DNA from: Deltaproteobacteria bacterium
GTDB taxonomy: Bacteria > SAR324 > NAC60-12
DNA length: 64,000 bases
Assembly: GCA_038150265.1 (NCBI GenBank)
Contig: JAYOTF010000003.1
Location: 1 to 64,000, forward strand
Direction: 5' to 3'
Notes under the pieces: model-generated
The model's database searches: none
Told to the model about the DNA's origin: nothing
What the model saw: the letters and a program-made list of their open reading frames with translations, nothing else
In this document: positions 1-63,942 of the stretch, in pieces
Position numbering within the stretch: position 1 is the first letter of the stretch
Layout: every line of letters starts with the position of its first letter
Position numbers and translations under genes: made by a program

Positions 1-1144
1 AACTCCGGAGGCGCTGCACGGTTTCAATCAGACGACGGGTCGCATAAGCGACTTCTTCAGCTGTTGTGAAGCGCCCAATGCTGAGCCGCACGGAGGCCCT
101 CGCCAGTGCTTCGGAGCGACCAATCGCCTGCAGGACGTAAGACGGCCCAATGTCCGCAGAGGTGCAGGCGGATCCAGACGCCACGGCCAACTCGCTGATG
201 CCCAGCAGCAGGGCCTCGCCGTCTACACCTTCCACACTGAAGTTGAGGTTGTTGGGCAGCCGCTGTTCCGGACCGTTGAGCAGCACGCCCCCGAGCTGCG
301 CCTGCAGGGAAGCAAGGAGCTGGCTCAGCAACAACCGCTGACGTTCCCCCTCGGGCTTCCAATCGCTGGCACACAGTTCGGCGGCCACCCCCATGCCAAT
401 GATGCCGGGGACGTTCAAGGTACCGGAGCGCAAACCCGACTCGTGCCCACCCCCCAGCAGAAGAGGCGAAATGCAGGGTTCGCCCGCCACCGACCTCACC
501 AACAGCCCCCCGGCCCCCTTGGGACCATAAAACTTGTGGGCACTGAACGAGAGCAGGTCCACCTTCAGGTCTCGGGCACTCAGGGGAAGCTTCCCGACTG
601 CCTGGGTCGCGTCTGTGTGCAGCAATGCCCCGGCGTGGTGCGTCAGCTGGCTCACTTCCTCAAGCGGGTAAAGTGTGCCCAGTTCGTTGTGGGCCGCCAT
701 CAGCGACACCAGCACCGTGTCCGGACGCAACGCCTGTTCCAGCTCCTTCAGGTCGATCTGCCCCTCGGCATCCACCGAGAGGTAGGTCACTTCCCAGCCT
801 TGCTGCTCCAGCCTCCGGACCGGATCCAGCACCGCCTTGTGTTCAATCGGGGTGGTGATCAGGTGCCGTCCCTTGTGCTTCCAGCGCTCGGCCACCCCGA
901 AGAGGGCGGTGTTGCACGACTCCGTGGCGCCGCTGGTCCACACCAGCTCCCTGGGGTTGGCCTTCAGCAGCGCCGCGACCTTCTCCCGAGCGCCTTCCAC
1001 TGCTCGCTCAGCAGTCCACCCAAACGAATGGTTGCGGCTTGCCGCGTTTCCAAACCACTCCGTGAAGTAGGGGAGCATCTTCTCCACCACCCGAGGATCC
1101 ACTGGAGTCGTGGCATTGTAATCGAGGTAAATCGGCAGTTTCAC
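1..1144 (-). CDS. iscS: Cysteine desulfurase (IscS/NifS group I), runs off the left edge
   Basis: Not in the ORF track because there is no stop in the window. Manual translation from GTG at 1144 gives (M)KLPIYLDYNATTPVDPRV...TSGATES...SAHKFYGPKG (PLP lysine)...SGSACTS (catalytic Cys)...RLSIGRFTT. Confidence 0.95.
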   Translation of the reverse strand, partial: MKLPIYLDYNATTPVDPRVVEKMLPYFTEWFGNAASRNHSFGWTAERAVEGAREKVAALLKANPRELVWTSGATESCNTALFGVAERWKHKGRHLITTPIEHKAVLDPVRRLEQQGWEVTYLSVDAEGQIDLKELEQALRPDTVLVSLMAAHNELGTLYPLEEVSQLTHHAGALLHTDATQAVGKLPLSARDLKVDLLSFSAHKFYGPKGAGGLLVRSVAGEPCISPLLLGGGHESGLRSGTLNVPGIIGMGVAAELCASDWKPEGERQRLLLSQLLASLQAQLGGVLLNGPEQRLPNNLNFSVEGVDGEALLLGISELAVASGSACTSADIGPSYVLQAIGRSEALARASVRLSIGRFTTAEEVAYATRRLIETVQRLRS

Positions 1145-1284
1145 CGAGCATCCGGGCACAGGTTGAAAAAATAATATGGTACCCGGAAGCAGAATTTTCT
1201 AAAATGATCAGTTGACTTCCTTGGTTCCGGGAAGGTCCTCCACAAAGCCTTCCCCTCCCGATCACTGATTCCGAGCACACAAAC

Positions 1285-3186
1285 ATGTCCACGGCAATGC
1301 AATACGACGTGCTGGTCATTGGGGCAGGTCATGCCGGGTGCGAAGCCGCGCTGGCCGCCGCTCGCATGGGCGTCCGAACGGCGCTGGTGACCATGTCTCG
1401 CGACACCATCGCAGAGATGTCCTGCAACCCCGCGATTGGCGGCATCGGGAAGGGGCACCTGGTGAAGGAGATTGATGCCCTCGGGGGAGAGATGGGGAAG
1501 GTGGCCGACGCCACCGGCATCCAGTTCCGGGTCCTCAATGCCTCACGCGGTCCGGCCACCTGGGGATCGCGCTGCCAGTCGGAGATGCATGAGTACAAGA
1601 AGGAAATGCGCCATGTGCTGGAGCAGCAGGACGGTTTGACGATTCTGGAGGGGTTGGTGGAAGACCTGCTCTTCGAAGGCGACCGCGCCGTTGGGGTCCG
1701 GACCTCAACCGCCGAGTACTTCAGCCAAACCGTGGTTGTCACCACCGGCACCTTCCTCAATGGCCTCATCCACCGTGGAGATGAGCGCGAGGAAGCCGGA
1801 CGGGTGGGCGAGCCACCGTCCAAGAACCTGTCCCTCTCCCTTGCTGGCCGGAACCTCGTCCTCGGACGCATGAAGACCGGGACGCCGGCACGGGTCAACA
1901 AGCACACCATCGACTGGGATCGGTTGGAGGTGCAGCCCGGAGACACGCCTCCACGGCGGTTCTCGTTCTGGGACACCGAAATCAAGCTCCCGCAGGTGCC
2001 CTGCCACATCGCCTACACCAACAAGCGGACCCACGCGATCATTCAGGAAAACCTCAGCCGCTCTGCTCTCTACGGAGGCCAGATCAAAGGCGTCGGCCCC
2101 CGGTACTGTCCCTCGATTGAGGACAAGATCGTCAAGTTTGCCGACAAGGACCGGCACCAGATCTTCATGGAACCCACGGGTCTGGCAGAAGACAACCTGA
2201 TGATCTACCCCAACGGACTGTCCACCAGCCTGCCCGCAGACGTTCAGTTTCAGTTCCTGCGGACCATTGAAGGGCTGGAGGCGGTGGAGATCATCCGGCC
2301 GGGCTATGCCATTGAGTACGACCACATTGATCCGACTCAGCTGAAGCCGACCCTGGAGCTGAAAGGCGTCGCGTGCCTCTACCTGGCCGGGCAGATCAAC
2401 GGCACCACCGGATACGAAGAAGCGGCAGCACAGGGGCTGATGGCCGGCATCAACGCCGCCCTGCAGGTGCAGCAGCGCCCTGCCTTCACCCTCGCACGCA
2501 ACGAGGCGTATATCGGCGTGCTCATTGACGACCTCATCACCAAGGGCGTCACGGAGCCTTACCGGATGTTTACCTCACGGGCGGAGCACCGCCTGCAACT
2601 GCGGGAAGACAATGCGGACCTCCGGCTTTGTGAAAAGGGGCACACCCTCGGCCTCCTTTCCGACTCCTGCTGGCAGCAGTTTGAAGAAAAGCGCACCCAG
2701 ATCCTGGCCCTCAGTCAGGCCCTGCAGGAACAGCGGATTCTTCCCAACGCCAACGTTCAGGCAGAGCTGGAGAAACTGGACGAGCCCCCTCTCAAGCACC
2801 CGGTTACCTTTGTGGAGCTCCTCAAGCGTCCGCGCCTCAACATTGCGCGCCTCATCCCCACCCCACTCGCGGAGGGCGTGGACTGGAACGCGTTTCCGGA
2901 GGCGGTCCGGCATCAGGTGGAAGTGGAGTCCAAGTACGAAGGGTACCTGGTTCGGCAGGCGCAGGAGCTGAAGCACCTTGAGGAAATGGACCGCATCCTC
3001 ATTCCGGAGGATTTTTCGCCACAGGGCATTTCCGGATTGTCTCGGGAGGTGGTGGAGAAGCTGGAGAAGGTCCGGCCGGTTTCCCTGGGGCAGGCCAGCC
3101 GCATTGATGGGCTGACCCCAGCGGCAATTGCGATCCTGCGGGTGCAGCTCAAGGCGCATCACGCCCGAAAAGCCGCCGCCGCATAG
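1285..3186 (+). CDS. mnmG: tRNA uridine 5-carboxymethylaminomethyl modification enzyme MnmG (GidA)
   Basis: [13 protein letters not shown] motif, [48 protein letters not shown]. Confidence 0.97.
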
Positions 3187-3197
3187 ACCACGCGGAA

Positions 3198-3223
3198 GCT
3201 CCCGGGCGGGAGCCTCCGGAGGC
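3198..3223. terminator. GC-rich hairpin(s) between convergent mnmG and prpE
   Basis: GCTCCC-GGGC-GGGAGC at 3198-3213 overlapping the perfect palindrome GCCTCCGGAGGC at 3212-3223; no U-tract. Confidence 0.35.
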
Positions 3224-3227
3224 GAGT

Positions 3228-5132
3228 TCAGCCTTCGCCGTATTGACCAATGCCACACTCCTGCATGGCCTCGGTGATCTCATCCAGAATCGCCGGGTCG
3301 TCAATGGTCGGAGGAACCGGGACGTCCTGCTCTGCGGCCAGTTGCCGCAGCGTCTTGCGCAGAATCTTGCCAGACCGCGTCTTGGGCAGACGCTTGACGA
3401 TTGCCGAGTGCCGGAAGTAGGCCACGGCGCCAATTTCCCGCCGGATGATGGCGACCAGCTCTTCCTGCATCTCTGCCTGCGTCTTCTCCTGCCCATCCTT
3501 GAGGACCACGAAGCCCACCGGAATCTGTCCCCGGAGTTCATCATCAATTCCCACCACCGCACACTCGGCCACCGAGGCGTGCCCGCCGATCAGCTCTTCC
3601 ATCTCTCCGGTGGAAAGCCGGTGCCCGGCCACGTTGATGACGTCGTCAATGCGGCCCATCACAAACAGGTAGCCGTCTTCGTCCTTCATCCCGCCGTCTC
3701 CGGTCAGGTAGTAGCCCGGGAAGGTTTCGAGGTACCCCTTCCGGAAGCGCTCATTGTTGCCCCAGAGGGTGGGGAGGCAGCTGGGAGGAAGCGGGAGCTT
3801 GACGACGATGTTGCCCGTCTCGCCGGGCTGGCACTCCAGGCCTCCGTCGTCGAGGATCCGGACATCGTAGCCGGGCATCGGCAGGGCGGGAGAACCGGTT
3901 TTCGGAGGATGCGGTTCAATGCCCATCGGGTTGGCACAGATCGCCCACCCGGTTTCGGTTTGCCACCAGTGGTCGATCACCGGCACCTCCAGGATGCTCA
4001 TGAGCCAGTCATAGGTCGGTGGGTCCAGGCGTTCTCCGGCAAGGTAGAGGGTCCGGAGCGAGCTGATGTCGTACTTTGCCAGCTCCCTGGCTTCCGGATC
4101 TTCCTTCTTGACGGCACGGAAGGCGGTGGGAGCCGTAAAGAAGGTGTTGATCCTGTGTTCCTCAATCATCCGCCAGAAGGCGCCGGCATCCGGAGTCTTG
4201 ACGGGCTTTCCTTCATAGACGATGGTGGTGCACCCCTGCAGCAACGGAGCATAGACGATGTAGGAGTGGCCCACCACCCACCCCACATCCGAGGCGGCCC
4301 AGAAGACGTCTCCGGGGTCGGTGTTGTACACCGCCTTCATGCTGTACTTCAGGGCCACCGCGTGCCCGCCGTTGTCTCGGATCACGCCTTTCGGCAACCC
4401 GGTGGTTCCGGAGGTATAAAGCACATAAAGCGGATCGGTCGCATCAACCGGCACCGGATCCACCGGCTTGGCCTGAGCCACCTGTTCCTGCCAGTCGAAA
4501 TCCCGTCCCGCCTGCAGGGAGGCTTCAGCTTGCGGGCGCTGCAGCAGCACCACGGCTTCGGGGGGCGTCTTTGCCAGCTCCAGGGCCTTGTCCACCAGGG
4601 GCTTGTACTCAATGACCCGGTTGACCTCAATTCCGCAGCTTGCGGTCACCAGCGCCTTGGGCTGGGCGTCGTCAATGCGGACCGCCAGCTCATGCGGAGC
4701 AAAGCCTCCAAAGACCACGGAGTGAATGGCGCCGATCCGGGCACAGGCCAGCATGGCCACTACGGCTTCGACCATCATGGGCATGTAGATCACCACCCGA
4801 TCGCCCTTCTCCACGCCGAGCCCCTGAAGCACGCCGGCAAAGGTTGCCACCTCGTGCTGCAGCTCCCGGTAGGTCACCGTCCGCTGGGTATCGGTGACGG
4901 GAGAGTCGTAGATGAGGGCCGGCTGGTCTGCCCGTCCGTTTTCGACATGGTAGTCAACAGCGAGGTAGCAGGTGTTGAGCTTCCCGCCCTTGAACCAGCG
5001 GTAGAAGCCTTCTTCGTCTTGAGAGAGGATGGTGGAGGGGAATTCGTACCAGTCCAGTTGCTCGGCCTGCTGGCGCCAGAAGGCTTCCGGCTGTTCGAGG
5101 GATTGCTGGTACTGGTCCCGATAGGCTGTCAT
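3228..5132 (-). CDS. prpE: Propionyl-CoA synthetase (acyl-CoA synthetase, PrpE-like)
   Basis: [41 protein letters not shown]. Start moved to ATG 5132 (MTAYRDQY), preceded by AGGAG. Confidence 0.88.
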   Translation of the reverse strand: MTAYRDQYQQSLEQPEAFWRQQAEQLDWYEFPSTILSQDEEGFYRWFKGGKLNTCYLAVDYHVENGRADQPALIYDSPVTDTQRTVTYRELQHEVATFAGVLQGLGVEKGDRVVIYMPMMVEAVVAMLACARIGAIHSVVFGGFAPHELAVRIDDAQPKALVTASCGIEVNRVIEYKPLVDKALELAKTPPEAVVLLQRPQAEASLQAGRDFDWQEQVAQAKPVDPVPVDATDPLYVLYTSGTTGLPKGVIRDNGGHAVALKYSMKAVYNTDPGDVFWAASDVGWVVGHSYIVYAPLLQGCTTIVYEGKPVKTPDAGAFWRMIEEHRINTFFTAPTAFRAVKKEDPEARELAKYDISSLRTLYLAGERLDPPTYDWLMSILEVPVIDHWWQTETGWAICANPMGIEPHPPKTGSPALPMPGYDVRILDDGGLECQPGETGNIVVKLPLPPSCLPTLWGNNERFRKGYLETFPGYYLTGDGGMKDEDGYLFVMGRIDDVINVAGHRLSTGEMEELIGGHASVAECAVVGIDDELRGQIPVGFVVLKDGQEKTQAEMQEELVAIIRREIGAVAYFRHSAIVKRLPKTRSGKILRKTLRQLAAEQDVPVPPTIDDPAILDEITEAMQECGIGQYGEG

Positions 5133-5188
5133 GTGTTGTCTCCTGCTTGAAGGGGTAGAGTGGATCACTTAAGGTGCAGACCACGGGG

Positions 5189-5617
5189 TCAGTTCATCAT
5201 CATGTCTCGCATGAAGGGAATCAGGCGCATCACCCAGTCCGGATGCTGCTTCCAGCTGGACATGTCGTAGTTCGGATTGAAGTAGTCCAGAAATCCGACC
5301 AACTCCTGACTGGTGAGGTCTGATGCGGGTCGAAACGCCATGGCCCATCCGGCAAAGTAGCGCTCGTCCAGTTCCCCCTGGTCAAAGACCGAGATGAACT
5401 CGTGACGGGAGTCCTTTTCGATGTGCTGGTAGAGTTCCTGAACCGCCGGTTGGGGGCCTTCAATGAACTGAAAGAAGCGTTCGTTTCCGTAAAAAAGAAC
5501 CCCGGTGATGCCGGCACGTTCATTATGAACCCGAGCCAGGCTGAGCATGGACGCCAGTTCGGCATCTGACATCGGGTGCGTCGAAAAACTGCCGTAGGCC
5601 ATGTAAAACAAGCTCAT
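5189..5617 (-). CDS. Stand-alone BLUF-domain blue-light photoreceptor
   Basis: BLUF pattern: Y-x-S (AYGS), ARVHN..GITGVL, FFQFIEG, IEKDSRH, RYFAGWAM. The photoactive Tyr, Gln and Met are present. Start ATG 5617 or TTG 5629. Confidence 0.9.
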   Translation of the reverse strand: MSLFYMAYGSFSTHPMSDAELASMLSLARVHNERAGITGVLFYGNERFFQFIEGPQPAVQELYQHIEKDSRHEFISVFDQGELDERYFAGWAMAFRPASDLTSQELVGFLDYFNPNYDMSSWKQHPDWVMRLIPFMRDMMMN

Positions 5618-5700
5618 GATGCTTCTCAACTGGACACCTGGCGGGCTGCGGTGTGAGGTCGTGTTTGACAGCGCGACCCGTGAGGGTCACGCCAGGGGCA

Positions 5701-5723
5701 GGGACCGGAGGGTGCCCGGTCCC
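5701..5723 (-). other. Stem-loop just downstream of the phaC stop
   Basis: GGGACCGG-N7-CCGGTCCC, an 8-bp perfect stem with no U-tract. Confidence 0.35.
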
Positions 5724-5732
5724 CTTGGGTGC

Positions 5733-7457: not shown

Positions 7458-7488
7458 TCGGCTCCTCTTGCAAAGGTTGAGAAATCAG

Positions 7489-8247: not shown

Positions 8248-8305
8248 GAGTCTGTTCCATTTGTTGAGTGTGTGAAAGAACCCCTGTTTTGTTGTGTTCC
8301 GTGGC

Positions 8306-9487: not shown

Positions 9488-9535
9488 TTGCTCCTTGTTG
9501 AGATGCCTCCGGAGTCCGGAGAGGGGGGTAAAATG

Positions 9536-9571: not shown

Positions 9572-9577
9572 CTTCCA

Positions 9578-11512: not shown

Positions 11513-11561
11513 TGTTTTCTCCTGTTGGGAAAGTGCCTTGGGAGTCACGCGTAAAGGGCTG

Positions 11562-19432: not shown

Positions 19433-20875
19433 ATGCCACTGCAGCTACACAATTCCCTCACCGACCAGCTGGAACCCTTCCAGCCGCTTCAGCCTGGACG
19501 GGCCACCCTCTATGTCTGCGGTCCCACCGTTTACAGCGACAGTCACCTCGGCCACGCCAAGACCTACGTCAGCTTCGACGTCATGCTCCGCTGGCTCCGG
19601 ACCCTTGGGCTCAAGACCTTCTACGTCCAGAACATCACCGATGTCGGGCACCTGCTGGGAGACACCGACGATGGAGACGACAAGCTCCTCAAGCGGGCTC
19701 GGGAGCTGGACCAGGAACCCATGGCGGTGGCCGAGACCTACACCCGGGAGCACTTTGCGGCCATGGACCAACTCGGCGTGATTCGGCCCGACATTTCTCC
19801 TCGCGCCACGGGGCACATTCCGGAACAACTGGAAGCCATTGCAGAATTAATTGAGCGCGGTTTTGCCTATGAGGCCAACGGGTCCGTCTACTTCAGTGTG
19901 AGTCAGGACCCGCAGTACGGCGAGCTTTCGAACCGGACCCTTGAGGAGCTGCAGGAAAGCGGGCGCGTCGAGTCTCGCAGCGAAAAGCGCGACCCCCGAG
20001 ACTTTGCCCTCTGGAAGCGCGCGGAGCCTGGACACCTGATGCGCTGGCGTGATCCGTACAGTGGCTGGGGCTACCCCGGTTGGCACACCGAGTGTGTGGT
20101 CATGAGCACCCGCTACCTGGGGGACGCCTTTGACATTCACGGCGGAGGCATGGACCTCAAGTTCCCGCACCACGAGTGCGAAATTGCACAGGCCCGGAAC
20201 CTCGGCAAGCCCTTTGCAAACTACTGGTTACACAGCAACATGCTCACCATCGACGGACAGAAGATGAGCAAGTCTGCTGGGAACTTTGTCACCATCCGGG
20301 ACGCCTTTGCGGAATACGACCCGCTGGTGGTGCGGTACTTTGTGGCAGCCAGCCACTACCGGTCGGTGGTCGACTACAGTGCCGCGGCGCTTCAAGGCGC
20401 GCGTCAGGCCCTGCGACGCCTGCACCAGACCGTCCGGGCGCTCCGGGCGCTCCTGCCTCCGACTCCGGAGGGGGCTCCAGCCGGGCGCTTCTTTGAGAAA
20501 CAGCGTCAGGCCTTTGAGTCGGCCATGAATGACGACTTCAGCACCCCACAGGCCCTCGCGGCCCTCTTTGACCTGAGCCATGAAGCCAATCGGCTGCTCA
20601 GCAACGCGGAGCCCGATCCGGAAGCCGTCCAGGAAGCCGAACAGCTCTTCCGGACGCTCGGAGGCGACGTGCTGGGGCTCATTCCCGAAGACCTGGGGGC
20701 CGCTGATGCTTCCGGACAGCTCGACGGTGTCATGGACCTGGTCATCGACCTCCGGACCCAATTCCGAGCGGAAAAGGATTACGCTCGCTCCGACCTCATC
20801 CGAGATCGCTTGAAGGATGCGGGAATTTTACTCAAAGACTCCAAGGAAGGAACCACCTGGGAGCCCGAACCCTAA
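19433..20875 (+). CDS. cysS: Cysteine--tRNA ligase
   Basis: [12 protein letters not shown] (HIGH), [35 protein letters not shown]. Confidence 0.96.
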
Positions 20876-22842: not shown

Positions 22843-24348
22843 ATGAATTATCGTTCATTCTGTCTGCTTCTCTCCTTCCTCCTGCTGCTGCCGCTGGTGA
22901 CGTTTGCCCAAACCAGCAGCGAGTTGGAACAGCTCATTCGGGAGTCCAAGACCCGGGCCAAGCTGGTCCAACGCGTCCAGCAAGCCGTCGTCCACATCAA
23001 GGTCGAAAAGATCCTCCGCGATGCCCAGGGTCAGCCACTCAACAACCCTTTCGATCTTTACAACGACGAGTTCCTTGACCGGTTCTTTCCCGGCATCCGC
23101 CCTCCTCGAGATCGCCAGCAGCGCAACCAGCCTCAGCGCCAGCAGCCCCGGGACTTCCGGCAAGAGGGCATGGGGTCCGGCTCGATCATCAACCAGGACG
23201 GCTACATCCTCACCAACCACCACGTTGTTGGTGAAGCCGATGTCATCATGGTGAAGCTCTACGACGGCCGGGAATTTGAGGCCAAGCTGGTGGGAACGGA
23301 TCCGGAATCCGACATTGCCGTGGTCAAGATTGATGCGCCCGACCTCCCCGTCCTGCCCACCGGAAACTCCGATGAGGTGGAAGTGGGAGAATCGGTTATT
23401 GCCGTGGGGAACCCGTTTGGCCTGACCCAGACCGTGACCTACGGAATCGTCAGCGCCAAGGGCCGCTCCAACGTGGGCATCACCGAGTATGAAAACTTCA
23501 TCCAGACCGATGCGGCCATCAACCCCGGAAACAGCGGCGGTCCCCTGATCAGCCTGCGTGGAGAAATCATCGGCGTCAACACCGCCATCTACACCCGTAA
23601 CGGGGGCTACCAGGGCATCGGCTTTGCCGTCCCCATCAACATGGCCCGGGGCATCATGAACGACCTCATCAGCGATGGTCGGGTGGCCCGGGGCTGGCTC
23701 GGGGTGGGCATTCAGGACCTCAACAGCGACCTGGCCCAGGCCTTCAACCTGAACAACACCAAGGGCTCCCTCGTCACTGGCGTCATGGAAGGCACCCCGG
23801 CAGAACGAGCCGGCCTGAAGAAAGGCGACGTGGTTGTTGAGCTGAACGGACGAACCGTGCAGGACAGCAACTACTTCCGGAACGAGATTGCCAATGCACG
23901 CGCCAATGCCACCGTCTCGCTCAAGATCCTCCGCAACAACGATGGCGGTACCCCGCGCGAGCTGACCTTCGATGTCCTGCTCGATGAGCGTCCCAAGGAA
24001 CTGTCGGCCGCTCGGCGAGAACTCCTCCAACAGCAGCAACCGCAAGAGCCTGACACCGAATCCGTGATGGGGTTCACCACTCAGGAACTCAATGCGGACC
24101 TCGCCCAGGAGTTTCAACTGGACGACACCACAGGTCTGGTGGTCACCGAAGTCGAGCCTCGCTCTCCTGCTGAAGACGCGGGTTTGCGTCCGGGCATGAT
24201 CCTCCTTGAAGTCAACCGGCAGCGGGTCAATGACCTGGCCGCCCTCCGGAACCTCTTGAATGCGACCGACTTGAAACAGGAAGGGCTCCTGCTCTATGTT
24301 TCCGGAGCCGGAGGCGAGCGGTACATTGCCGTCCGCGAGGGTCGTTGA
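22843..24348 (+). CDS. Periplasmic serine protease DegP/DegQ (HtrA) with two PDZ domains
   Basis: Signal peptide; TNHHV (His), ESDIA (Asp), TDAAINPGNSGG (Ser); RGWLGV PDZ1 and a second PDZ. Confidence 0.94.
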   Translation: MNYRSFCLLLSFLLLLPLVTFAQTSSELEQLIRESKTRAKLVQRVQQAVVHIKVEKILRDAQGQPLNNPFDLYNDEFLDRFFPGIRPPRDRQQRNQPQRQQPRDFRQEGMGSGSIINQDGYILTNHHVVGEADVIMVKLYDGREFEAKLVGTDPESDIAVVKIDAPDLPVLPTGNSDEVEVGESVIAVGNPFGLTQTVTYGIVSAKGRSNVGITEYENFIQTDAAINPGNSGGPLISLRGEIIGVNTAIYTRNGGYQGIGFAVPINMARGIMNDLISDGRVARGWLGVGIQDLNSDLAQAFNLNNTKGSLVTGVMEGTPAERAGLKKGDVVVELNGRTVQDSNYFRNEIANARANATVSLKILRNNDGGTPRELTFDVLLDERPKELSAARRELLQQQQPQEPDTESVMGFTTQELNADLAQEFQLDDTTGLVVTEVEPRSPAEDAGLRPGMILLEVNRQRVNDLAALRNLLNATDLKQEGLLLYVSGAGGERYIAVREGR

Positions 24349-29290: not shown

Positions 29291-31574
<2,284 letters not shown>

Positions 31575-31592
31575 CCGTCTCTTTCAGTACGT

Positions 31593-31610
31593 TCGAGGCC
31601 GAAGCCTCGA
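31593..31610 (-). promoter_or_regulatory. cUUCGg tetraloop hairpin between atpA and atpG
   Basis: mRNA reads UCGAGGC-UUCG-GCCUCGA, a 7-bp perfect stem. Confidence 0.6.
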
Positions 31611-31619
31611 CGAAGTTCG

Positions 31620-33134
<1,515 letters not shown>

Positions 33135-33677
33135 TCAACCTTGGATGATGGATTGGCGCACTCGATTCAGCTGATTGCGGAGGCTGCCGTCAATGACGGT
33201 GGAACCGATGCGGGTAACAACACCGCCAATGATGGACGGATCGATTTTTACAGTGACCGACACCTCCTTGCCAGAGGTTTGGGACAGTTGGGACTGGAGG
33301 CTCTGAACCAGCTCGGCAGAGGGTTCCTGGGCCACCGTGACTTCAGCCTCGACCTTGCCCATCGACGCCTTGACGAGTGCATCAAAGGCAATCGCGATGT
33401 CCGGCGCCAGCGCAATGCGGCGCTTGGACAAAAGAAAACGAAGGAAGGTGTGCACGCGGGCGCCGGTGCCCAGCTTCTCCAGCACCGCCACCAGAATGCT
33501 TTCCTTTGCGGTTCCGGACACTCGGGACGAGCTGAGGCTCTCGCGCAGGTCCTCACTGAGGGCGTAGGCCTCGGCAAAATCCTGGAGGTCCTGAACAACG
33601 GTCTCGAGGCTCTTCTCCGGTTGGGCTAGTGCCAGCAGCGCCTTGGCATACCGGCGGGCGATCACAGCTTGGCTCAC
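33135..33677 (-). CDS. atpH: ATP synthase delta subunit
   Basis: IARRYAKAL, DPSIIGGVVTRIGSTVIDGS. Confidence 0.95.
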   Translation of the reverse strand: MSQAVIARRYAKALLALAQPEKSLETVVQDLQDFAEAYALSEDLRESLSSSRVSGTAKESILVAVLEKLGTGARVHTFLRFLLSKRRIALAPDIAIAFDALVKASMGKVEAEVTVAQEPSAELVQSLQSQLSQTSGKEVSVTVKIDPSIIGGVVTRIGSTVIDGSLRNQLNRVRQSIIQG

Positions 33678-34249
33678 AGGGCCTCCTTCGTTTTCAGGTC
33701 TTGCACAAAGGACTGCATCAGCTCTTCCTGCTTCTTCCCATTGAGCTGGGCGGTGATTTTTTCTTCAGCGAGCTTGACGGACTCTTCCGCCATCCAGGCG
33801 CGCAGTTCCATTTCCGCTTTGCGACGCTCTCGTTGCAGAGCCACCTTGGCCTGCTCGGCCATGTGCTCCACTTCCGCCTTGCCCATCTCCACAATGCGCT
33901 GTCGTTCGGCTTCAGCTTCGGTCCGGGCTCGCTCCACCATTGAGGCGGCTTCCTGCTCGAGCTGGGCCACCTTGGCACGGAGCTCCACGAGCTCGCTGTC
34001 GGCCCGCTTTTCGGCTTCCCGGGCTTCTTCGAGGTTCTGCCGAGCTTGCTGAGCCGAGCCGTTCAGGGCTGCGCTGATCGGGGCCTTCCCAAAGCGATAG
34101 AGGATGAAGATCAGGACGGCAAAGTTGACGACCTTCCAGAGGAAGTCCAGGGAGCTGGAGCCTCCTTCGGCGCCCGCAGCCCAGACAAGGGGGGCCGTCG
34201 CGAGCAACAAGCCGGCACTGGCCAGTCCCGCAGTAAACTTGAGTTTCAT
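33674..34249 (-). CDS. atpF: ATP synthase F0 subunit b
   Basis: Signal-like N-terminus, WKVVNFAVLIFILY TM segment, long coiled coil; GTGA overlap with atpH. Confidence 0.88.
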   Translation of the reverse strand: MKLKFTAGLASAGLLLATAPLVWAAGAEGGSSSLDFLWKVVNFAVLIFILYRFGKAPISAALNGSAQQARQNLEEAREAEKRADSELVELRAKVAQLEQEAASMVERARTEAEAERQRIVEMGKAEVEHMAEQAKVALQRERRKAEMELRAWMAEESVKLAEEKITAQLNGKKQEELMQSFVQDLKTKEAL

Positions 34250-34284
34250 GGTGGCTTGAGTGTGGGTTTCAGTGGGCGGGTTGA

Positions 34285-34764
34285 TTAACTCAACAAGCGA
34301 GAGACGGTCGCCGTGGCAACCTGATCCTTCAGAGTCAACAGCTCCTTGTGGGCTTCATCCACTTCGGCAGCCAGCTCACCCCGAGACTTTTCCAGTAACT
34401 CCTCAACAATGACGCGCTCCTTGGCGATCATTTCCTCGCGTTCCTTGAAGCCGGTTTGCTGAATGCTCTGATGCAGGTCTCCCACCTCGGCATAGGCCTG
34501 CGCCAAGCGCGTCTCCACCTCGTGGCGGCTGGATTCGATTTCGGCTGAAATCTTCTGCACCTTCTCCTGAGAGGATTCCACTTCCTGGGCGCGGCTGTCC
34601 AGCGTTCGCAGGACCGGCTGAAACAGAAGCTTGTTGATCACAAAGATCATGACCAGAATGATCACCAGGGTGACCGTTGGGGTCGCCAGTTGCACGTGCA
34701 GGAGACCGAAGTCAGCATTGACTCCTCCCCATGCGTTCTCAACAAAGATCTCTTTGTAATCCAT
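34285..34764 (-). CDS. ATP synthase F0 subunit b'
   Basis: TM segment followed by NKLLFQPVLRTLDSR and a coiled coil; first gene of the operon. Confidence 0.85.
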   Translation of the reverse strand: MDYKEIFVENAWGGVNADFGLLHVQLATPTVTLVIILVMIFVINKLLFQPVLRTLDSRAQEVESSQEKVQKISAEIESSRHEVETRLAQAYAEVGDLHQSIQQTGFKEREEMIAKERVIVEELLEKSRGELAAEVDEAHKELLTLKDQVATATVSRLLS

Positions 34765-34885
34765 CTCAGCCCGAATGTAAGGTTTGTTAAGAAAAACGTA
34801 TTAAGTACCTATTTCTCATGAAAAATTCAAGCTCAAGCTTGCTTTAGCCCTCATTTTCGTTCATTTTTTATCGATTAACCTATTC

Positions 34886-35398
34886 ATGCCCCCACCCCCT
34901 CCTCTGCTGCCGTTTCGAATTGGCTCCGGATTTGATGTCCATGCCCTTGTTGAAAATCGCCCCCTGATCCTGGGAGGAATTTCGGTTCCGCATGAACGGG
35001 GCCTGCTCGGACACTCCGATGCCGATGTCCTCACGCATGCCTTGATGGACGCCCTGCTTGGCGCCCTGGCGCTCGGAGACCTCGGGCAGCACTTTCCCGA
35101 CACGGATCCCCGTTACCGTGGGGCCGATAGTGTAAGGCTCCTGGACCACGTCGTCCACCTCATTCAGCAAGAGGGGTATGTTTTGGGGAATGCCGACCTG
35201 ACGCTGATCGCCCAGCGCCCCAAACTCGCCCCGCACCTGCCTGCCATGCGCGAGAACCTGGCGGCGGCCCTCCAGGTGGAGCCCCCTCAGGTTTCCATCA
35301 AGGCCACCACCACCGAGAGGCTCGGGTTCACGGGCCGAGAAGAAGGAATTGCCGCGCAAGCCACCGTCCTCCTGCTCGCGGTAGCCAAAAAAGCTTGA
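34886..35398 (+). CDS. ispF: 2-C-methyl-D-erythritol 2,4-cyclodiphosphate synthase
   Basis: [45 protein letters not shown]. Confidence 0.96.
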
Positions 35399-35478
35399 AG
35401 CCCATGGCAAAGTCCGCTATTTTGGCGGATTATTCATTTTTTGTCTTTCAGCAGATCACCCTACAAAAGGCACGGAAC

Positions 35479-37584
35479 ATGGACGCTGCAGCGCAGAAAA
35501 TTCTGGAGTCCACTCGCAACATTGGTATTTCCGCACACATTGACAGTGGTAAGACCACCCTGACAGAACGCATCCTGTTCTACGCAGGGAAGATTCACAA
35601 AATTGAGGAAGTTCGGGGAGGTGGCTCCGGGGCAACCATGGACCACATGGACCTGGAGAAGGAAAAGGGCATCACCATCACCTCTGCCGCCACAACCGTT
35701 GGGTGGAAAGACAAGAAGATCAACATCATCGACACCCCTGGGCACGTGGACTTCACGGTTGAGGTGGAGCGTTCCCTGCGTGTGCTTGATGGTGCCATCC
35801 TCGTGCTCTGCGGCGTCGCCGGCGTCCAGTCTCAGTCCCTGACCGTTGACCGGCAGATGAAGCGCTACCGCGTGCCGCGCCTGGCCTTCATCAACAAGCT
35901 GGACCGCATGGGGGCGAACCCCTTCCGCGGCATCGAGGGCATCCGGGAGCAACTGGGCCTCAACGCCGTCGCCATGCAGCTGCCGATTGGACTGGAAGAC
36001 GAGCACAACGGCGTGGTCGACCTCGTTACCATGAAGGCCATCTTCTTCGACGGCGACCGCGGGGAAACCGTCCGCTTCGATGAAATTCCGGCGGACATGA
36101 AGGACGAGGCGGAAGAGAAGCGTCAGGAGATGCTCGAAGCCGTCTCCATGTTCGATGAGCAGATGATGGAAGACCTCCTTGAAGAGAAGGAGATTCCGGA
36201 AGAGGCCATCCACGCCGCCATCAAAAAGGGCGTCCAGAGCCTGGGCCTCTGCCCGGTGTACATGGGAAGTGCCTTCAAGAACAAAGGCGTTCAGGTGCTG
36301 CTTGATGCCATCACCCGCTACCTGCCTTCCCCACTGGAAGCAGAAAACATGCGGGCCATCAACCTGGAAGACGAGTCCACCATTCAGCTCAAGGCCGATC
36401 CGGACCTCCCCACGGTCGCCATGGCCTTCAAGCTGACCGAAGAGCAGTTTGGTCAGCTGACCTATACCCGCATCTACCAGGGTCGCCTCAACAAGGGAGA
36501 GCAGATCGTCAACGTCCGGACCGGCAAGAAGCTGCGGGTGGGACGCATGGTCCGCATGCACTCCAATGACCGCGAGAACATTGACACCGCAGAGGCCGGT
36601 GACATCATCGCCATGGTCGGCGTCGAGTGTGCCTCCGGTGATACCTTCTGCGGCGACGGCATCAAGGTGTCCTGCGAATCCATGTACGTCCCGGTCCCGG
36701 TGATTTCTCTCGCCGTGAAGGGCAAGGACAACGAGCACCAGATGCGCATGAGCAAGGCCCTGAGCCGCTTCATGCGGGAAGACCCGACCTTCCGGGTGTC
36801 GTCTGACGAAGAGTCCAAGGAGACCATCATCTCCGGAATGGGCGAGCTGCACCTCGAGATCTACATCGAGCGCATGCGCCGTGAGTACAATGCCGAGGTC
36901 ATCGTCGGAGCCCCGCAGGTCAACTACCGCGAAGCCATCACCACCCCAGCCAACTTCGACTACCTCCACAAGAAGCAGACCGGAGGCTCCGGACAGTTCG
37001 CTGGAGTTGCCGGCAGCATTGAGCCCCTGGAAGAAGGCGCCGAGGAGAACTTCGAGTTCGTCAACGCCATCTTCGGAGGATCCATCCCGGGCGAACACAT
37101 CCCGGCTTGTGAGAAGGGCTTCCAGGATGTCATGGAAAAAGGGCCGCTGGCCGCCTTCCCCATGGTGGGCGTCAAGGTGACCCTGAAGGATGGAAAGTAC
37201 CACGACGTGGACTCCAGTGACCTCGCTTACCGGATTGCCTCTCGCCAGGCGATGAAGCAGGCCGTCGCCAAGGCCCACCCGGTTCTGCTGGAGCCGATCA
37301 TGAAGGTGGAAGTGGAAACCCCAGCCGACTACCAGGGCTCGGTGATGGGAGACCTCAGCTCCCGCCGGGGCATGATCTACGGCTCTGAAGTCAAGGGAGA
37401 CGACACCGTGATCACCTGCGGAGTTCCGCTCGGCGAAATGTTCGGCTATGCCACCGAGCTTCGCTCCATGACCGCCGGTAAGGCTTCTTACTCCATGGAG
37501 TTTGAGAAGTATTCCGCCGCTCCCGCCTTCGTGCAGGAGAAGGTCATCAAGGAGCGCCAGGAGAAGCTCAAAGACGAAGATTGA
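35479..37584 (+). CDS. fusA: Elongation factor G (spdEFG1/mtEFG1-like), outside the str operon
   Basis: [54 protein letters not shown]. Start ATG 35479. Confidence 0.95.
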
Positions 37585-55266: not shown

Positions 55267-55329
55267 CTCTGCTGAAAGTTCTGCACCCTGAGCCTGTTCC
55301 GCCCCTCACACCGGTCACCAGTCCATCCC

Positions 55330-57466: not shown

Positions 57467-57467
57467 C

Positions 57468-58658: not shown

Positions 58659-58799
58659 GGCACCCTTGTGACGCATTGAGTGAGCAAACGAGAAAGGTTG
58701 GTCCCGGGCGGCGGGGACTCATGAAGGACCACCTGTTTTCCGATCCGCCCCACGGCTCCCAGCCTTTTCCTGAAACCGCACTGGCACCACGCTTCCAAC

Positions 58800-60029: not shown

Positions 60030-60864
60030 CGTAGTAGTCCCTCAGTGGCAGGTCCGGACGCTGAAGCCAGTTCCAGTCCGGATACTCGGCATCGCCTTCA
60101 ATCACATGCAGGGTGTAGGCGTGCCGGGTGCGGGGAGACCGGTTGGCGTAGCTCAGGTGCGGCAATCGTCCGTGCAGCACCACCAGGGTGCCTTGCTCCA
60201 CCTCCAGCGGCACCAGCTGGTCCAGGTTCCAGGGGCTGGCATCCAGCACCTCCATGGACATGCCGCCCGCGGCGGCTCGCTTAAACAGCGACTTCAGGGG
60301 CGTTTGGTGTCCGCCCGGAATCGCCCACAGGCATCCGTTTTCCTGATCCGCTCGTTCCAGGGCAAACCAGAACCCGGTGACGCTGAGCGGGTCGGTGTAC
60401 AGAAAGGTCCCGTCCTGATGGCACGTCACCTCTCCGCCAATGAAGGGCTGCTTGAAGATGTACATCGATTGCAGCAGCTGCGGCCGCTTCAGTCCCAGCG
60501 CCTGCATCAGCTTCGCCAGCGGCTTCGTGTAGGAAAAACGCTCAAACTCCGGATCCAGGTCGTGCTGGGCGTGGCCGATTTTGTTGAGCGAGTGCTGCTT
60601 GTCCTGACGGAGGTGCTGCTGTTCGTCAAAGGCTTCTTCCTCAAAAAAGAAGCGGATCTGGTCGCCGGAACTGAGGAAGTAGTCATCCGCCCGGCGTGTC
60701 TGTTCGTTGGTGGTGAACAGGCTCCGGTGAGTGGTGGCGTCAAAGGCCTCAACGAGGGCTTCGGTGTGCGTCCGGAGGCGTTCACAGGCCTCCGGCGTCA
60801 CAAAGTTCGGCAGGACCAGGTAGCCTTGTTCGGCAAAGCGGGAAGCAGCATCTTGAGGAATCAT
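60007..60864 (-). CDS. Phytanoyl-CoA dioxygenase (PhyH/PHYHD1-like) Fe(II)/2-oxoglutarate oxygenase
   Basis: NKIGHAQHD, QSMYIFKQPFIGGEVTCHQD, ENGCLW, HGRLPHLSYANRS. Start ATG 60864. Confidence 0.9.
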   Translation of the reverse strand: MIPQDAASRFAEQGYLVLPNFVTPEACERLRTHTEALVEAFDATTHRSLFTTNEQTRRADDYFLSSGDQIRFFFEEEAFDEQQHLRQDKQHSLNKIGHAQHDLDPEFERFSYTKPLAKLMQALGLKRPQLLQSMYIFKQPFIGGEVTCHQDGTFLYTDPLSVTGFWFALERADQENGCLWAIPGGHQTPLKSLFKRAAAGGMSMEVLDASPWNLDQLVPLEVEQGTLVVLHGRLPHLSYANRSPRTRHAYTLHVIEGDAEYPDWNWLQRPDLPLRDYYATASASD

Positions 60865-61054
60865 GAAATCAGGCAACTTGAGTTCGGTGCGGGAGCCTTC
60901 GGGTCCCCTTACGAGTGTTTGCGGGTTTTCCGAGAATGTGGCAAGGTAAGGCCGCCATTTAATCGCAGTTGACGTCAGGACGCAAGGCTTCCGCCAACTG
61001 CTTTCTGTTCCACAACGGTTCTCCTGCCGAGCCGTTGGTACCATTCCGGACCGC

Positions 61055-61477
61055 ATGCTGGAAGAACGCACCCTGAGTGTCATTCATTACGAGTCTCAGA
61101 CGCAGCAGCACCCTGCTGAAATTCCCTGGAGAACGCAGCGGACGCGGCGTCCGGGAGAAGCCTTTCGGCTGGAGAGCACAGACGACCCCGTCTCGGATGC
61201 CATGGCCCGCAACGACTACTGTCCGATTGAGCTGGCGGCCTTTCACAGCCCCAACGAGGGCATGCTTTCCTTACGGGTGTTTGCCAGCGCCGTGGGTCGG
61301 ACGCCCCACAGCTACCTGGCCCTCCTGCGCCTGGGGGGGCAGCAACACATCTACTACTTCACCGGGCCGGTGGCGCTCATGGAGTTCATGCGCTACACCA
61401 TGGCAGGCATCAAGGCCATTGAGCCGCTGACGGATCCGGAGCAGTGGCCCCCCTGGTCCATTCCTTCACAGCTGTAA
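61055..61477 (+). CDS. Hypothetical protein (140 aa)
   Basis: Ends 9 bp before the MinD-like gene; protein-like C-terminal half; start uncertain. Confidence 0.5.
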   Translation: MLEERTLSVIHYESQTQQHPAEIPWRTQRTRRPGEAFRLESTDDPVSDAMARNDYCPIELAAFHSPNEGMLSLRVFASAVGRTPHSYLALLRLGGQQHIYYFTGPVALMEFMRYTMAGIKAIEPLTDPEQWPPWSIPSQL

Positions 61478-61486
61478 GACACGACC

Positions 61487-62479
61487 ATGACTGCAGAACG
61501 CATCCCCACGTTCATTCCGGTGGCCAGTGGCAAGGGAGGAGTTGGGAAGACCTTCCTGGCCGCCAACCTTGCAGCGGCGCTTGCCGAACTCGGCAAACAG
61601 GTCATTGCGGTCGATCTGGATCTCGGCGGTTCGAACCTCCACACCTACCTCGGCCTCGGCAACACCCACCCCGGCATTGGAGACTACCTCAACAGCGGAG
61701 GCAACCTCCAGGACCTGCTGGTCCCAACCGCGTGGGAAACCCTCCAGTTTCTGCCCGGAGACGGCCGGACCCCGTTCCTGGCCAACCTGCCGCACGCCCA
61801 GAAGCAGAAGCTCCTCCTCAACCTCTCTCGGCTGCAGGCCGATTTCGTCTTCCTCGACCTCGGAGCCGGAAGCAGCTACAACACGCTGGATTACTTTGGA
61901 TTGACCCCACAGGGGATGGTGGTCACCACTCCGGAGTACCCGGCTGTGATGAACATGATGACGTTTCTGAAGAACTTTACCTTCCGGACCATTGAGCGCG
62001 CCCTTCCGCCCAAATCGTACGTTCGGACCCAGGTCCAGCAGTGCCTCGCCAACCAGCAACCAGACGCCAACCTCACCGTCAGCCGCCTGATGGAAGTCAT
62101 TGCAGAAGCGGCTCCCGGCCTCCATGAGACGGTTCAGGCCCGCTGGGCCACCTTCCGGCCCCGGATCATCTTCAACCAGGGCACCGGTCCGGAAGACCTG
62201 GAGGCCCTGGAGCAGATCCAGAGTAGCCTGGAACAGACCCTGCGGCTCAAGGTCGATTTCTTTGGATTTGTGTTCTACGATCCCCTGGCCAAGGAGCTGA
62301 GCCGCAAGCGCGCCTCGTTGCTGCAGCATGCCCGAGACACAGAGATGGGGGCGGACATCCTTCGCCTGGCCGACCGCATTGTGCGGCTCTGGCCTCAGCC
62401 GATCCGCAACAGCGCGCCGCTCCTTCGGAACAACACCGAGGCCACGCTGGCCCAGCGCGAAGGACGAGGAGACGTTTAA
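61487..62479 (+). CDS. MinD/FlhG/ParA-family ATPase
   Basis: Deviant Walker A SGKGGVGKT, DLDLGGSNL, LDLGAG, VTTPE. Confidence 0.88.
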   Translation: MTAERIPTFIPVASGKGGVGKTFLAANLAAALAELGKQVIAVDLDLGGSNLHTYLGLGNTHPGIGDYLNSGGNLQDLLVPTAWETLQFLPGDGRTPFLANLPHAQKQKLLLNLSRLQADFVFLDLGAGSSYNTLDYFGLTPQGMVVTTPEYPAVMNMMTFLKNFTFRTIERALPPKSYVRTQVQQCLANQQPDANLTVSRLMEVIAEAAPGLHETVQARWATFRPRIIFNQGTGPEDLEALEQIQSSLEQTLRLKVDFFGFVFYDPLAKELSRKRASLLQHARDTEMGADILRLADRIVRLWPQPIRNSAPLLRNNTEATLAQREGRGDV

Positions 62480-62486
62480 GGCGGGG

Positions 62487-62714
62487 TTACTGCGCCGACA
62501 GCAGGGAAGCCGAAGGCAAGGGGGCGAGCTTCTGCAGCCGCACTGGCTCCACGGTCCACTGCGCCGATTTCTGAGTCCACTCCGACTGATGGTACACGGC
62601 CTCCACAGTCAGCATCTCGCCGTTGTCCTCCAGCACCACTTCCTCCATGTCTTCCTCTTCCGGGGCCAGCGGCACCAACTCATCGAGCAATTTCCGAAAC
62701 TCATGATCTGTCAT
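62487..62714 (-). CDS. Small acidic hypothetical protein
   Basis: MTDHEFRKLLDELVPLAPEEEDMEEVVLED; GGGAG upstream; convergent with the MinD-like gene. Confidence 0.45.
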   Translation of the reverse strand: MTDHEFRKLLDELVPLAPEEEDMEEVVLEDNGEMLTVEAVYHQSEWTQKSAQWTVEPVRLQKLAPLPSASLLSAQ

Positions 62715-62919
62715 TTTCTGAACTCCCTGCATCCGTTGGGGTGAATCCGGACCTGCGCCTTCCTGTCGCCAAGCCGGTGGGGTTTCATCAGGAAGTTGCA
62801 GCGCCTATGCCACCTTCCCGGCGTTTTTCGCGGGAAGCACTTGCAACTGCCCAGACCCCTCGCGCAGGATGTTGCGGTTTTGTGCCCGGCTCTTACCTCC
62901 TTTTTTCTGAAACCTACCG

Positions 62920-63942
62920 ATGACCGCTGAAGCCATTACTTACGATGACGTCCTCCTGGTTCCCTCATACAACCACTGGGAATCCCGCCGCATTGTGGAC
63001 ACCACCATGACTGACCGGAGCGGCAAGCTCACCCTCTCCCTGCCTGTCATGACGGCCAACATGGACACGGTCACCGAGGCCGCCATGGCCAACTTCATCG
63101 GCAGCCGCGGCGGCATCGGCGTCCTGCACCGGTTCATGTCCATTGACGACAACGTCCGGATCTTCAAGGCGTGTGAGTTTCCGGCGTTTGTTTCCATCGG
63201 CTGCGGCACCGCTGATCTCGAGCGTGCCGAGGCGCTGCACCAGGCAGGAGCCGACAAGTTCTGCATCGACGTCGCTCACGCTCACGCCAAGTACGTTGGC
63301 CGGACCCTGAAGGAAGCCCGGGACCTGTTGGGCAAGGATGCCTGCATCATGGTCGGAAACGTCGCCACCTACGCGGGGGCCGACTACCTCGCGTCGTGCG
63401 GGGCCGACGTCATCAAGGTGGGCATTGGTGGCGGGTCCGTTTGCACCACGCGCATCAAAACCGGCTTCGGCGTCCCCAACCTGACGGCCATCCGCGAATG
63501 CGCCCGGGTCGACCGCTCCATCGTGGCCGACGGCGGCATCCGGACGCCTGGAGACATCGTCAAGGCGCTCGCGTTTGGGGCAGACTTTGTGATGGTGGGC
63601 TCCATGCTCGCAGGAACGCGTCCCACGCCAGGGGAAGTCTTTGAGGAAGCGCAGGCAGACGGAAGCACCCGGCGCTTCAAGCGCTACCGGGGCATGGCCA
63701 GCCGCGAGGTGGCAGATGACTACCATGGCGGCTTGACCGAGTGGAAAACGGCGGAAGGGGTGGCCACCGAAGTCGGCTACCGTGAAGATGAGGAACACAT
63801 CGTTGCCGACATCATCGGCGGGCTCCGTTCCGGACTGACCTACGGCGGAGCCGCAACCATTCAGGAACTGCAGCGCAAGCTCGACTACGTCCGGGTCACG
63901 CCCGCCGGCCGCACCGAGAGCCTGCCACACCGCGTCCTCTGA
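62920..63942 (+). CDS. IMP dehydrogenase / GMP reductase family protein without CBS domains
   Basis: [70 protein letters not shown]; 340 aa. Confidence 0.9.

Follow-up and report, generated by a model that had tools for sequence, protein, structure and literature searches.

Highly iterated palindromes have been described in cyanobacteria, among them HIP1 (GCGATCGC) and alternate words such as rCCGGy in Oscillatoria PCC 10802 (Elhai, 2015, PMC4390886; Xu et al., 2018, PMC5861425). Such words have been without a mechanism for thirty years. Here, we describe one of the same kind, the hexamer TCCGGA, in an unrelated and globally abundant marine phylum, starting from a 64,000-nt stretch of the genome of an uncultured SAR324-type bacterium (G000, contig C3:1-64000), which we refer to as the window. 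Relatives of its AtpA, together with the names under which homologues are recorded, put G000 in the SAR324-type "Deltaproteobacteria" group of metagenome-assembled genomes. Like HIP1, TCCGGA is a short palindrome, hyper-abundant beyond what codon usage explains, present within and between genes, bound to a lineage with exceptions among close kin, favoured also in its one-off variants and scarcer in highly expressed genes. The first-pass annotation of the window, made from its letters alone, had called the word HIP1-like, and this label is apt for a palindrome that exceeds codon usage in all reading frames as well as between genes and is shared by a lineage. TCCGGA differs from HIP1 in its host, a SAR324-type phylum, and in its length of six letters instead of eight. 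None of the methyltransferases found here tracks it, and the conservation of its sites exceeds that of control hexamers only modestly. For HIP1, a periodicity of 18-94 kb has been reported (PMC4390886, PMC5861425), as opposed to the 10.45-bp helical repeat that we found for TCCGGA. Our literature search, which left most subscription journals outside, found no report of TCCGGA iteration or of a helically phased iterated palindrome.

In mechanism, the closest described system is Dam/SeqA of E. coli, in which SeqA reads pairs of GATC that share one face of the helix (Chung et al., 2009, PMC2691817). The likeness consists of same-face pairs and of an orphan methyltransferase in the lineage; the differences are that neither SeqA nor MutH was found in G000 and that genus g12 uses half-turn spacing. 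In addition, GATC is not known to be hyper-abundant in E. coli. TCCGGA is also the BspEI/AccIII/Kpn2I site, and restriction-modification shares with our case the word itself and its strong avoidance in other genera of the phylum (g40, g42 and g43, with 15-76 TCCGGA against approximately 1,400-1,700 copies of a control word). However, TCCGGA is enriched 8.7x in G000, where no adjoining nuclease and no C5 methyltransferase were found. Lastly, DNA uptake sequences and uptake signal sequences (DUS/USS), Chi and skewed words of the type of the FtsK-orienting polar sequences (KOPS) are over-represented short genome-wide words maintained by the protein that reads them, but they are non-palindromic, often strand-skewed and not known to be helically phased.

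The G000 assembly (3.39 Mb in 87 contigs of at most 214 kb each, G+C content of 61.3%, 97.8% complete) carries 9,711 copies of TCCGGA, or one per 349 bp, making it the top hexamer with almost twice the count of the next. The window holds exactly 188 of them, dispersed from 4 to 63834 (first copy at 4-9, last at 63829-63834); the earlier hand count was at least about 185. With a G+C content of 60.8%, the zero-order expectation for the window is 20.9 copies, a 9.0x excess that agrees with the first estimate of about 20 copies and 9-fold. TCCGGA is also the commonest hexamer of the window, and the palindromes of the same composition, which the first-pass annotation had proposed as controls, are far from equally frequent there (ACCGGT 25, AGGCCT 25, TGGCCA 44). 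Markov simulations of the window (40 for each order) yielded 24.9 copies at order 1 (maximum 35), 45.6 at order 2 (maximum 66) and 73.8 at order 3 (maximum 94). Over the whole genome, the observed-to-expected ratio of copies (O/E) was 8.66 at zero order, 7.57 and 3.95 with dinucleotide and trinucleotide Markov models, 2.39 at order 3 and 1.22 with the maximal-order (pentamer) model.

The last value falls in the 1-2x range that the first-pass annotation had named as refuting, yet it does not overturn the claim: the maximal-order test is uninformative because pentamers already hold the signal, the flanks of CCGG being nearly independent. Among the 40,787 CCGG of G000, 44% have a 5' T and, symmetrically, 44% have a 3' A, and the two combine almost multiplicatively (7,959 TCCGGA expected, 9,711 seen, 1.22x), with a TCCGGA to ACCGGT ratio of 13:1. 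No flanking position outside the hexamer has more than 0.08 bit of information. Therefore, the unit is the hexamer, as first proposed, and it is built from two nearly independent half-sites. Extension to an 8-bp palindrome was seen at 65 of the 188 window sites, including six of the first 20, the very number noted at the outset. Counts per 4 kb across G000 were near Poisson (mean 11.6, variance 13.1, variance/mean 1.13), with no large motif-free or foreign islands of note at that scale. A dispersed repeat element, such as repetitive extragenic palindromes (REP) or miniature inverted-repeat transposable elements (MITE), was ruled out by the uninformative flanks and by the unique sequence found between paired sites.

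To separate the word from the proteins that it helps to encode, we called 2,925 genes in G000, of which 89% is coding, using a codon-usage model that took the window's Pfam-supported genes as its seed. The window sites fell in all three codon phases, namely 44 as TCC GGA, 50 as xTC CGG Axx and 73 as xxT CCG GAx, while 21 of the 188 were intergenic or at gene edges. Our calls confirmed the three examples given earlier, which are a Ser-Gly TCC GGA at 24301-24306 (+) in an HtrA-like protease gene (22843-24348, Pfam), an xTC CGG Axx at 1697-1702 (+) and an xxT CCG GAx at 3003-3008 (+), both in mnmG/gidA (1285-3186, Pfam). We then shuffled synonymous codons while keeping each protein and the codon counts of each gene (30 replicates). 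The in-gene count of 9,034 compared with 2,163 ± 35 after shuffling, a 4.18x excess (z of approximately 198), and each phase was raised 3.2-5.2x (2,112 observed vs. 537 shuffled, 2,442 vs. 757 and 4,480 vs. 870 in the above order). Under the same shuffle, ACCGGT, AGGCCT and TGGCCA stood at 0.88x, 1.18x and 1.33x. A shuffle preserving dicodons would be circular in the first phase, in which TCC GGA is a dicodon in its own right. The density was 2.98 sites per kb in genes (O/E 8.9) and 1.89 per kb in intergenic DNA (O/E 6.3), where TCCGGA was again the top hexamer with 681 copies against 89 ACCGGT and 145 AGGCCT. The suggestion that no single codon pair explains the word thus held, and its excess survived the synonymous shuffle that had been proposed as a check.

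Codon choice around the word is strongly displaced. Ser-Gly pairs are coded TCC-GGA in 35% of cases (8% expected), Arg is CGG between xTC and Axx in 70% (baseline 33.5%), and Pro is CCG in the T|CCG|GA context in 79% (baseline 38%). Before CCG GAx, the third base of a four-fold codon is T in 75% of cases against a baseline of 9.8%, and the odds of this base are thus approximately 27-fold higher. Altogether, TCCGGA occupies 9,032 of the 21,461 positions where the protein permits it (42%). None of the one-off words examined was depleted relative to the shuffle (TCCGGG/CCCGGA 2.25x, TCCAGA 1.22x, TCCGAA 1.05x). The force on TCCGGA acts on DNA rather than on protein, and strongly. Approximately one synonymous position per 350 bp is set by a non-translational force, which matters for analyses of codon usage and selection.

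The spacing of the sites in G000 follows the DNA helix. The histogram of distances between TCCGGA sites oscillates with a period of 10.45 bp and fades by approximately 300 bp, with peaks near 31, 41-42, 52, 62, 72, 83 and 93 bp and a deep trough at 11-17 bp. The relative amplitude was 0.135, whereas noise had a median of 0.017 and reached at most 0.039, and apart from words overlapping the motif, none of the 39 other commonest hexamers gave a 10.45-bp signal above its own noise maximum. The fitted phase was 0.03 turns (amplitude 0.195 in the histogram fit), meaning that paired sites lie on one face of the helix. At 10.45 bp, occupied sites had an amplitude of 0.168 and protein-permitted sites one of 0.0155; sites 12 bp apart were both occupied 0.16x as often as under independence, and sites 42 bp apart 1.4x as often. 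Permuting occupancy within gene and phase (n = 300) gave 0.033 ± 0.012 with a maximum of 0.066. The observed amplitude of 0.166 (z 11.4) was matched by no permutation, even with the period free to vary from 9.5 to 11.5 bp. Since permitted sites lack the 10.45-bp period and permutations fall short, the proteins do not encode the phasing, and on the same two grounds a protein periodicity such as that of amphipathic helices was ruled out.

One weaker form of the word shares in this order. TCCGGG/CCCGGA keeps phase with full sites (amplitude 0.059 over noise of 0.01), and the other one-off words are at noise; the strength of a site is graded, its two halves contributing additively. Cross-correlations of GGCC, TGGCCA and GGATCC with the sites were near noise. 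For AGGCCT, we observed a marginal signal at 10.45 bp, weak and roughly opposite in phase (0.071, noise median 0.029, phase 4.3 bp). The helical spacing is already visible in the window, where 22 of the 57 site pairs at most 110 bp apart lie within 1.5 bp of a whole turn and six lie within 1.5 bp of a half turn. At 20617-20756, a chain of four sites (20617, 20649, 20711 and 20751) has spacings of 32, 62, 40, 94 and 102 bp, or approximately 3, 6, 4, 9 and 10 turns of 10.45 bp. A pair 41 bp apart, or four turns, is located at 4052-4098 in an acetyl-CoA-synthetase-like gene; its intervening sequence is unique rather than a repeat, and more generally the sequence between sites 41-42 bp apart belongs to no repeat family.

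The preferred face of the helix is heritable and has changed between genera. We compared, by hand-summed gapped counts over whole genomes, the pairs 41-42 bp apart with those 46-48 bp apart, each relative to n^2/L. Whole turns prevailed in G000 (1.78 at 41-42 bp vs. 0.62 at 46-48 bp), G002 (1.38 vs. 0.76), G018 (4.3 vs. 0.64) and G005 (2.9 vs. 0.54), and half turns prevailed in G001 (0.45 vs. 0.99), G013 (0.26 vs. 1.31), G062 (0.24 vs. 1.48) and G063 (0 vs. 1.42). Every one of the 14 g11 genomes that have 1,300 sites or more showed the higher per-distance rate at 41-42 bp, although G040 rests on one pair at each spacing; the other 13 together had 398 pairs against 159, a per-distance ratio of 3.75. 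All three g12 genomes showed the reverse, with 14 pairs against 148 (ratio 0.14), and the 19 unenriched genomes of family f2 gave 17 against 23 (ratio 1.1). Hence, g11, G000 and G002 use whole turns, and g12 and G001 use half turns. G001 belongs to the genus of the window, and its half-turn phase differs from that of its congeners G000 and G002 despite approximately 70-80% DNA identity. Histogram fits to sampled DNA were also obtained for four genomes: G018 (398 kb, G+C content of 43%) had a period of 10.5 bp, an amplitude of 0.67 and a phase of 0.03 turns; G002 (440 kb) 10.45 bp, 0.34 and 0.05 turns; G013 (590 kb) 10.45 bp, 0.28 and 0.48 turns; and G001 (863 kb) 10.9 bp, 0.18 and 0.56 turns. 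The sample of G005 (80 kb) was too small for a fit. The gapped whole-genome counts are the stronger evidence on phase.

Comparison of G000 with G002 showed which sites take part in the phasing. Contig G002:C1 aligns collinearly with 423 kb of G000 (82.7% DNA identity), and the aligned stretch contains 569 shared sites, 673 found only in G000 and 429 found only in G002. The G000-only sites are mutually in phase (0.377, noise maximum 0.215), and lineage-specific sites are marginally in phase with shared ones (0.26-0.27, roughly at the noise maximum). G000-only and G002-only sites, which never coexist, show no phase relation (0.103, noise median 0.094). Phasing is limited to sites that coexist in one genome. 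Site replacements between the two genomes hit all six positions of the word, the commonest partner word being CCCGGA.

We surveyed the distribution of the word by whole-genome counts in 88 genomes of the SAR324-type phylum, using AGGCCT as the control word. All three g1 genomes are enriched, with 2,200-2,860 copies per Mb, as are all three g12 genomes (14-30 times AGGCCT) and 15 of 18 g11 genomes (ratios of 3.9-32); the remaining three g11 genomes, at 1.6, are 51-57% complete. Enrichment is moderate in g4 (three of three genomes) and weak in g3, g6 and g10. By the same counts, TCCGGA is not enriched in g2 (nine of nine), g5, g8, g9 and family f2. In family f7, 11 of the 19 genomes (genera g33 and g35-g37) are enriched 2.4-8x, and the word is strongly avoided in genera g38 and g40-43 (15-267 copies vs. 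1,435-1,882 AGGCCT). TCCGGA is the top hexamer in G001, G002 and G013 as well. Among 80 loci surrounding AtpA in other organisms, it came out on top in only one, L001 (83% AtpA identity), and not in L026 (82% AtpA identity). The trait is therefore lineage-bound with exceptions among close kin. The idea that each lineage has its own palindrome was rejected, as no palindromic hexamer exceeded 4.0x in the stretches sampled from G003, G006, G007, G010 and G027 (20-100 kb each), which have little or no TCCGGA excess.

Several side observations concern this distribution. Strong avoidance also occurs in the f2 genomes G021, G023 and G026, which, taken with the f7 genomes G081 and G083-G087, have 15-267 TCCGGA against 151-1,882 AGGCCT. 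Avoidance is expected if restriction systems against TCCGGA or CCGG circulate in the phylum. In a different family (f4), G066 has 357 TCCGGA and 10 AGGCCT in 1.6 Mb, a possible independent case. Two of the atpA loci of unrelated organisms, both small samples of 13-22 kb, gave O/E values of 4.4 (L045, a metagenome-assembled genome of Planctomycetia) and 3.6 (L017, an uncultured proteobacterium).

The reading that we favour, with slightly less than even confidence, is that TCCGGA is a genome-wide word read by a protein that senses at least two sites at once and is kept up by weak selection across the genome. An abundant, probably dimeric, sequence-specific DNA-binding protein or complex would bind TCCGGA and sense two or more copies, possibly acting on the organisation of the chromosome. 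Weak selection, or a fixation bias linked to binding, would act on thousands of synonymous and intergenic positions; such a force could hold approximately 42% of the permitted positions occupied and favour copies separated by a fixed number of helical turns, with copies on opposite faces of the helix in g12 and G001. The coupling between sites would pass through the helix itself, over the length scale of DNA stiffness. We prefer a multi-site reader because a process acting on single sites predicts none of the spacing facts, and because DNA mechanics leaves the absent or reversed pattern in close relatives unexplained. A chromosome-organising protein was one of the three origins proposed in the first-pass annotation, and it is the one that best fits the helical phasing; no such protein was identified.

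Two more specific forms of the multi-site reader can be considered. In a version resembling Dam/SeqA, an order-wide orphan methyltransferase may write the mark and a reader may bind phased pairs. It is also conceivable, though we are doubtful, that TCCGGA addresses a kind of chromatin by sequence, in which a reader, possibly the orphan methyltransferase itself (described below), the charged tail of which is longest, within family f1, in the most enriched genera, would link neighbouring sites, the geometry having flipped between same-face and opposite-face arrays and synonymous sites having been rewritten to match. Helical-repeat spacing with a genus-dependent face points to a physical mechanism, and it provides a direct assay for candidate readers, whose binding or bridging should depend on spacing as each genome predicts. 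The enriched and unenriched genera, and the whole-turn and half-turn lineages, are natural contrasts for comparative genomics.

A number of results weigh against the multi-site reader maintained by selection. No protein that reads TCCGGA was identified in G000: SeqA (PF03925) and MutH (PF02976) had no match in this 97.8%-complete genome, although the E. coli control was matched, and no histone fold was found. There was also no AT/GC periodicity of 10.45 bp around the G000 sites, and thus nothing indicates nucleosome-like wrapping. Turnover is fast, with only 569 of the 1,242 G000 sites in the aligned stretch (46%) kept in G002. In the first 120 kb, 47% of the sites are conserved against a median of 33% over 867 hexamer classes, which places TCCGGA at rank 124, approximately one standard deviation above the mean (ACCGGT 16%, AGGCCT 33%, TGGCCA 38%; third codon positions are 62% identical overall). 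This modest excess is compatible with recurrent gain. Having a neighbour in phase brought no gain in conservation, with 87 of 215 such sites kept (40%), compared with 36 of 85 with a neighbour out of phase (42%) and 359 of 743 with none (48%). From the divergence data, selection is not distinguishable from biased repair or conversion. On the side of phase, the amplitudes of G002, G001 and G013 are each no more than modestly above the noise maximum of that genome, and the f7 genera enriched 3-8x, for which two spacings were compared, had 46 pairs at 41-42 bp and 56 at 46-48 bp (ratio 1.2), with no clear contrast.

The rival that survives best, although we consider it unlikely, is of the HIP1 type: an orphan methyltransferase would mark TCCGGA, and a repair bias directed by methylation would convert near-sites one at a time, with no multi-site reader. 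A link between HIP1 and a methyltransferase, and the proposal of a ratchet of this kind, are in the literature (Elhai, 2015, PMC4390886), and the phylum does have an order-wide, single-copy orphan amino-methyltransferase, present in 48 of the 88 genomes, the model of which is closest, if weakly, to E. coli Dam. Yet a ratchet should use up one-off words, and those examined are not depleted, TCCGGG even standing at 2.25x; replacements between G000 and G002 are spread over all six positions. Neither the helical phasing nor its lineage-specific phase is predicted by a process acting on single sites. Searches of G000 for C5 methyltransferases (PF00145), Vsr (PF03852) and PF02384 found none, and PF00145 was not found in the TCCGGA-rich genomes G001, G013, G015 and G018 either. 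The orphan methyltransferase with biased repair, another origin put forward in the first-pass annotation, was not supported in the form proposed, on these counts and because the existing orphan enzyme does not track the trait.

That enzyme is one of two amino-methyltransferases encoded by G000, both outside the window. The first lies on contig C45 (L081, 35-3159) in an island of three genes. A retron-type reverse transcriptase (YADD motif; NF038233, E 3.9e-59) is followed directly by the 258-aa SPPY amino-methyltransferase and, after it, by a 311-aa open reading frame (ORF) without family match. The island is probably a defence island. We rejected its methyltransferase as the cognate enzyme, as an ortholog was found only in G001 (71%) and it therefore does not track the trait. 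When the C45 enzyme was used as query, G021, G023 and G026 gave 16-18 matches each. The second, on contig C51 (L082, 2-1387), is the single-copy orphan, with motif I as DPFMGGGT, followed by an insertion and by TSPPYPG. EamA, TerB-like and BacA genes occur next to it, and no nuclease gene does. At E ≤ 1e-40, enzymes of the C51 type occur in 33 of 45 f1 genomes, G000 included, and in 15 of 19 f2 genomes, with identity dropping with kinship. They are present in the unenriched genera g2 (seven of nine genomes), g5 and g9, and none was found in the 19 f7 genomes, 11 of which are enriched. With its presence in unenriched g2 and its absence from the matches in enriched f7 genera, the enzyme does not track the trait.

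The C51-type protein is a putative methyltransferase, the substrate of which may be DNA or RNA. Its structural model (pLDDT 91.8) has E. coli Dam as best match, weakly (E 1.5e-5, TM 0.36-0.57), and Trm11-type tRNA methyltransferases score nearly as well, an ambiguity that also counts against the ratchet. Among solved structures, the best sequence matches are to DNA N4-cytosine methyltransferases and are confined to the SPPY stretch. The N-terminal tail is charged and repetitive; the G002 form (G002:C16, L091 451-2643) has 730 aa, including approximately 340 aa of RPRREDRPRYEDR-like repeats, and the G013 form is located at G013:C49 (L093 1408-3147, minus strand). Motif IV reads TNPPY in G013 and TSPPY in G000, G002, G012 and G014. 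We also observed that tail length in f1 rises with TCCGGA density, with stop-to-stop frames of approximately 664-732 aa in g1, 558-614 in g12, 494-555 in g11, 483-507 in g4 and 433 in the unenriched g2, kin not being independent of one another. Family f2 has long frames of this enzyme without TCCGGA enrichment.

It is quite improbable, in our opinion, that DNA mechanics alone accounts for the pattern, with TCCGGA serving as an element of bending or flexibility and phased copies being selected to tune curvature or supercoiling without a specific reader. The period does equal the B-DNA repeat, the decay over approximately 300 bp corresponds to the scale of DNA stiffness, and arrays at whole and half turns would be expected to form curved and straight fibres, respectively. 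Physics, however, is universal, yet only some genera have the trait, and close kin lack it or show it reversed. Moreover, palindromes of the same composition are neither enriched nor clearly phased with the sites, apart from the weak anti-phase of AGGCCT, and no AT/GC periodicity accompanies the sites.

A signal for DNA uptake, recombination or self-marking, comparable to DUS/USS or to the transformation role proposed for HIP1, appears very improbable. A density of approximately one site per 350 bp would suit such a signal in magnitude, the sites are evenly distributed (variance/mean 1.13), and recent work is reported to link HIP1 to transformation. Nevertheless, known uptake signals are non-palindromic, helical phasing is not reported for them, and a lineage-specific switch of phase has no place in an uptake model; the uptake origin suggested in the first-pass annotation found no support in our results. 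Finally, that codon usage, dipeptide content or oligonucleotide bias produces the excess of a functionless hexamer is hardly credible: O/E corrected for pentamers is no more than 1.22-1.36, T is generally more frequent ahead of CCH codons (28% vs. 9.8%) and CCGG itself stands at 1.37x, but the word exceeds by 4.18x a shuffle that preserves proteins and codon counts, is the top word between genes too, has T in 75% of full-word contexts against 28-36% of partial ones, is phased where permitted sites are not, and shows no excess in close relatives of similar G+C content.

In G000, genes of higher coding score have fewer sites per kb, the density dropping from 3.73 in the lowest quintile to 2.42 in the highest (rho -0.29). 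In the window, the stretch from 29501 to 36000, which contains ATP-synthase genes and the start of the EF-G gene, has five sites in 6.5 kb (0.77 per kb), among the poorest densities seen, and this fits the genome-wide drop in density in genes of strongest codon adaptation. Around start codons, density dips from -40 to +20; as this dip was the sole signal there, an association with promoters was ruled out. Antisense "shadow" ORFs of nearly gene length are common in the window, for example at 3228-5168 (-) opposite 3243-5150 (+), and ORF length alone is no guide to genes here. In total, 75 ORFs of at least 200 aa were present in the window, compared with approximately 57 called genes.

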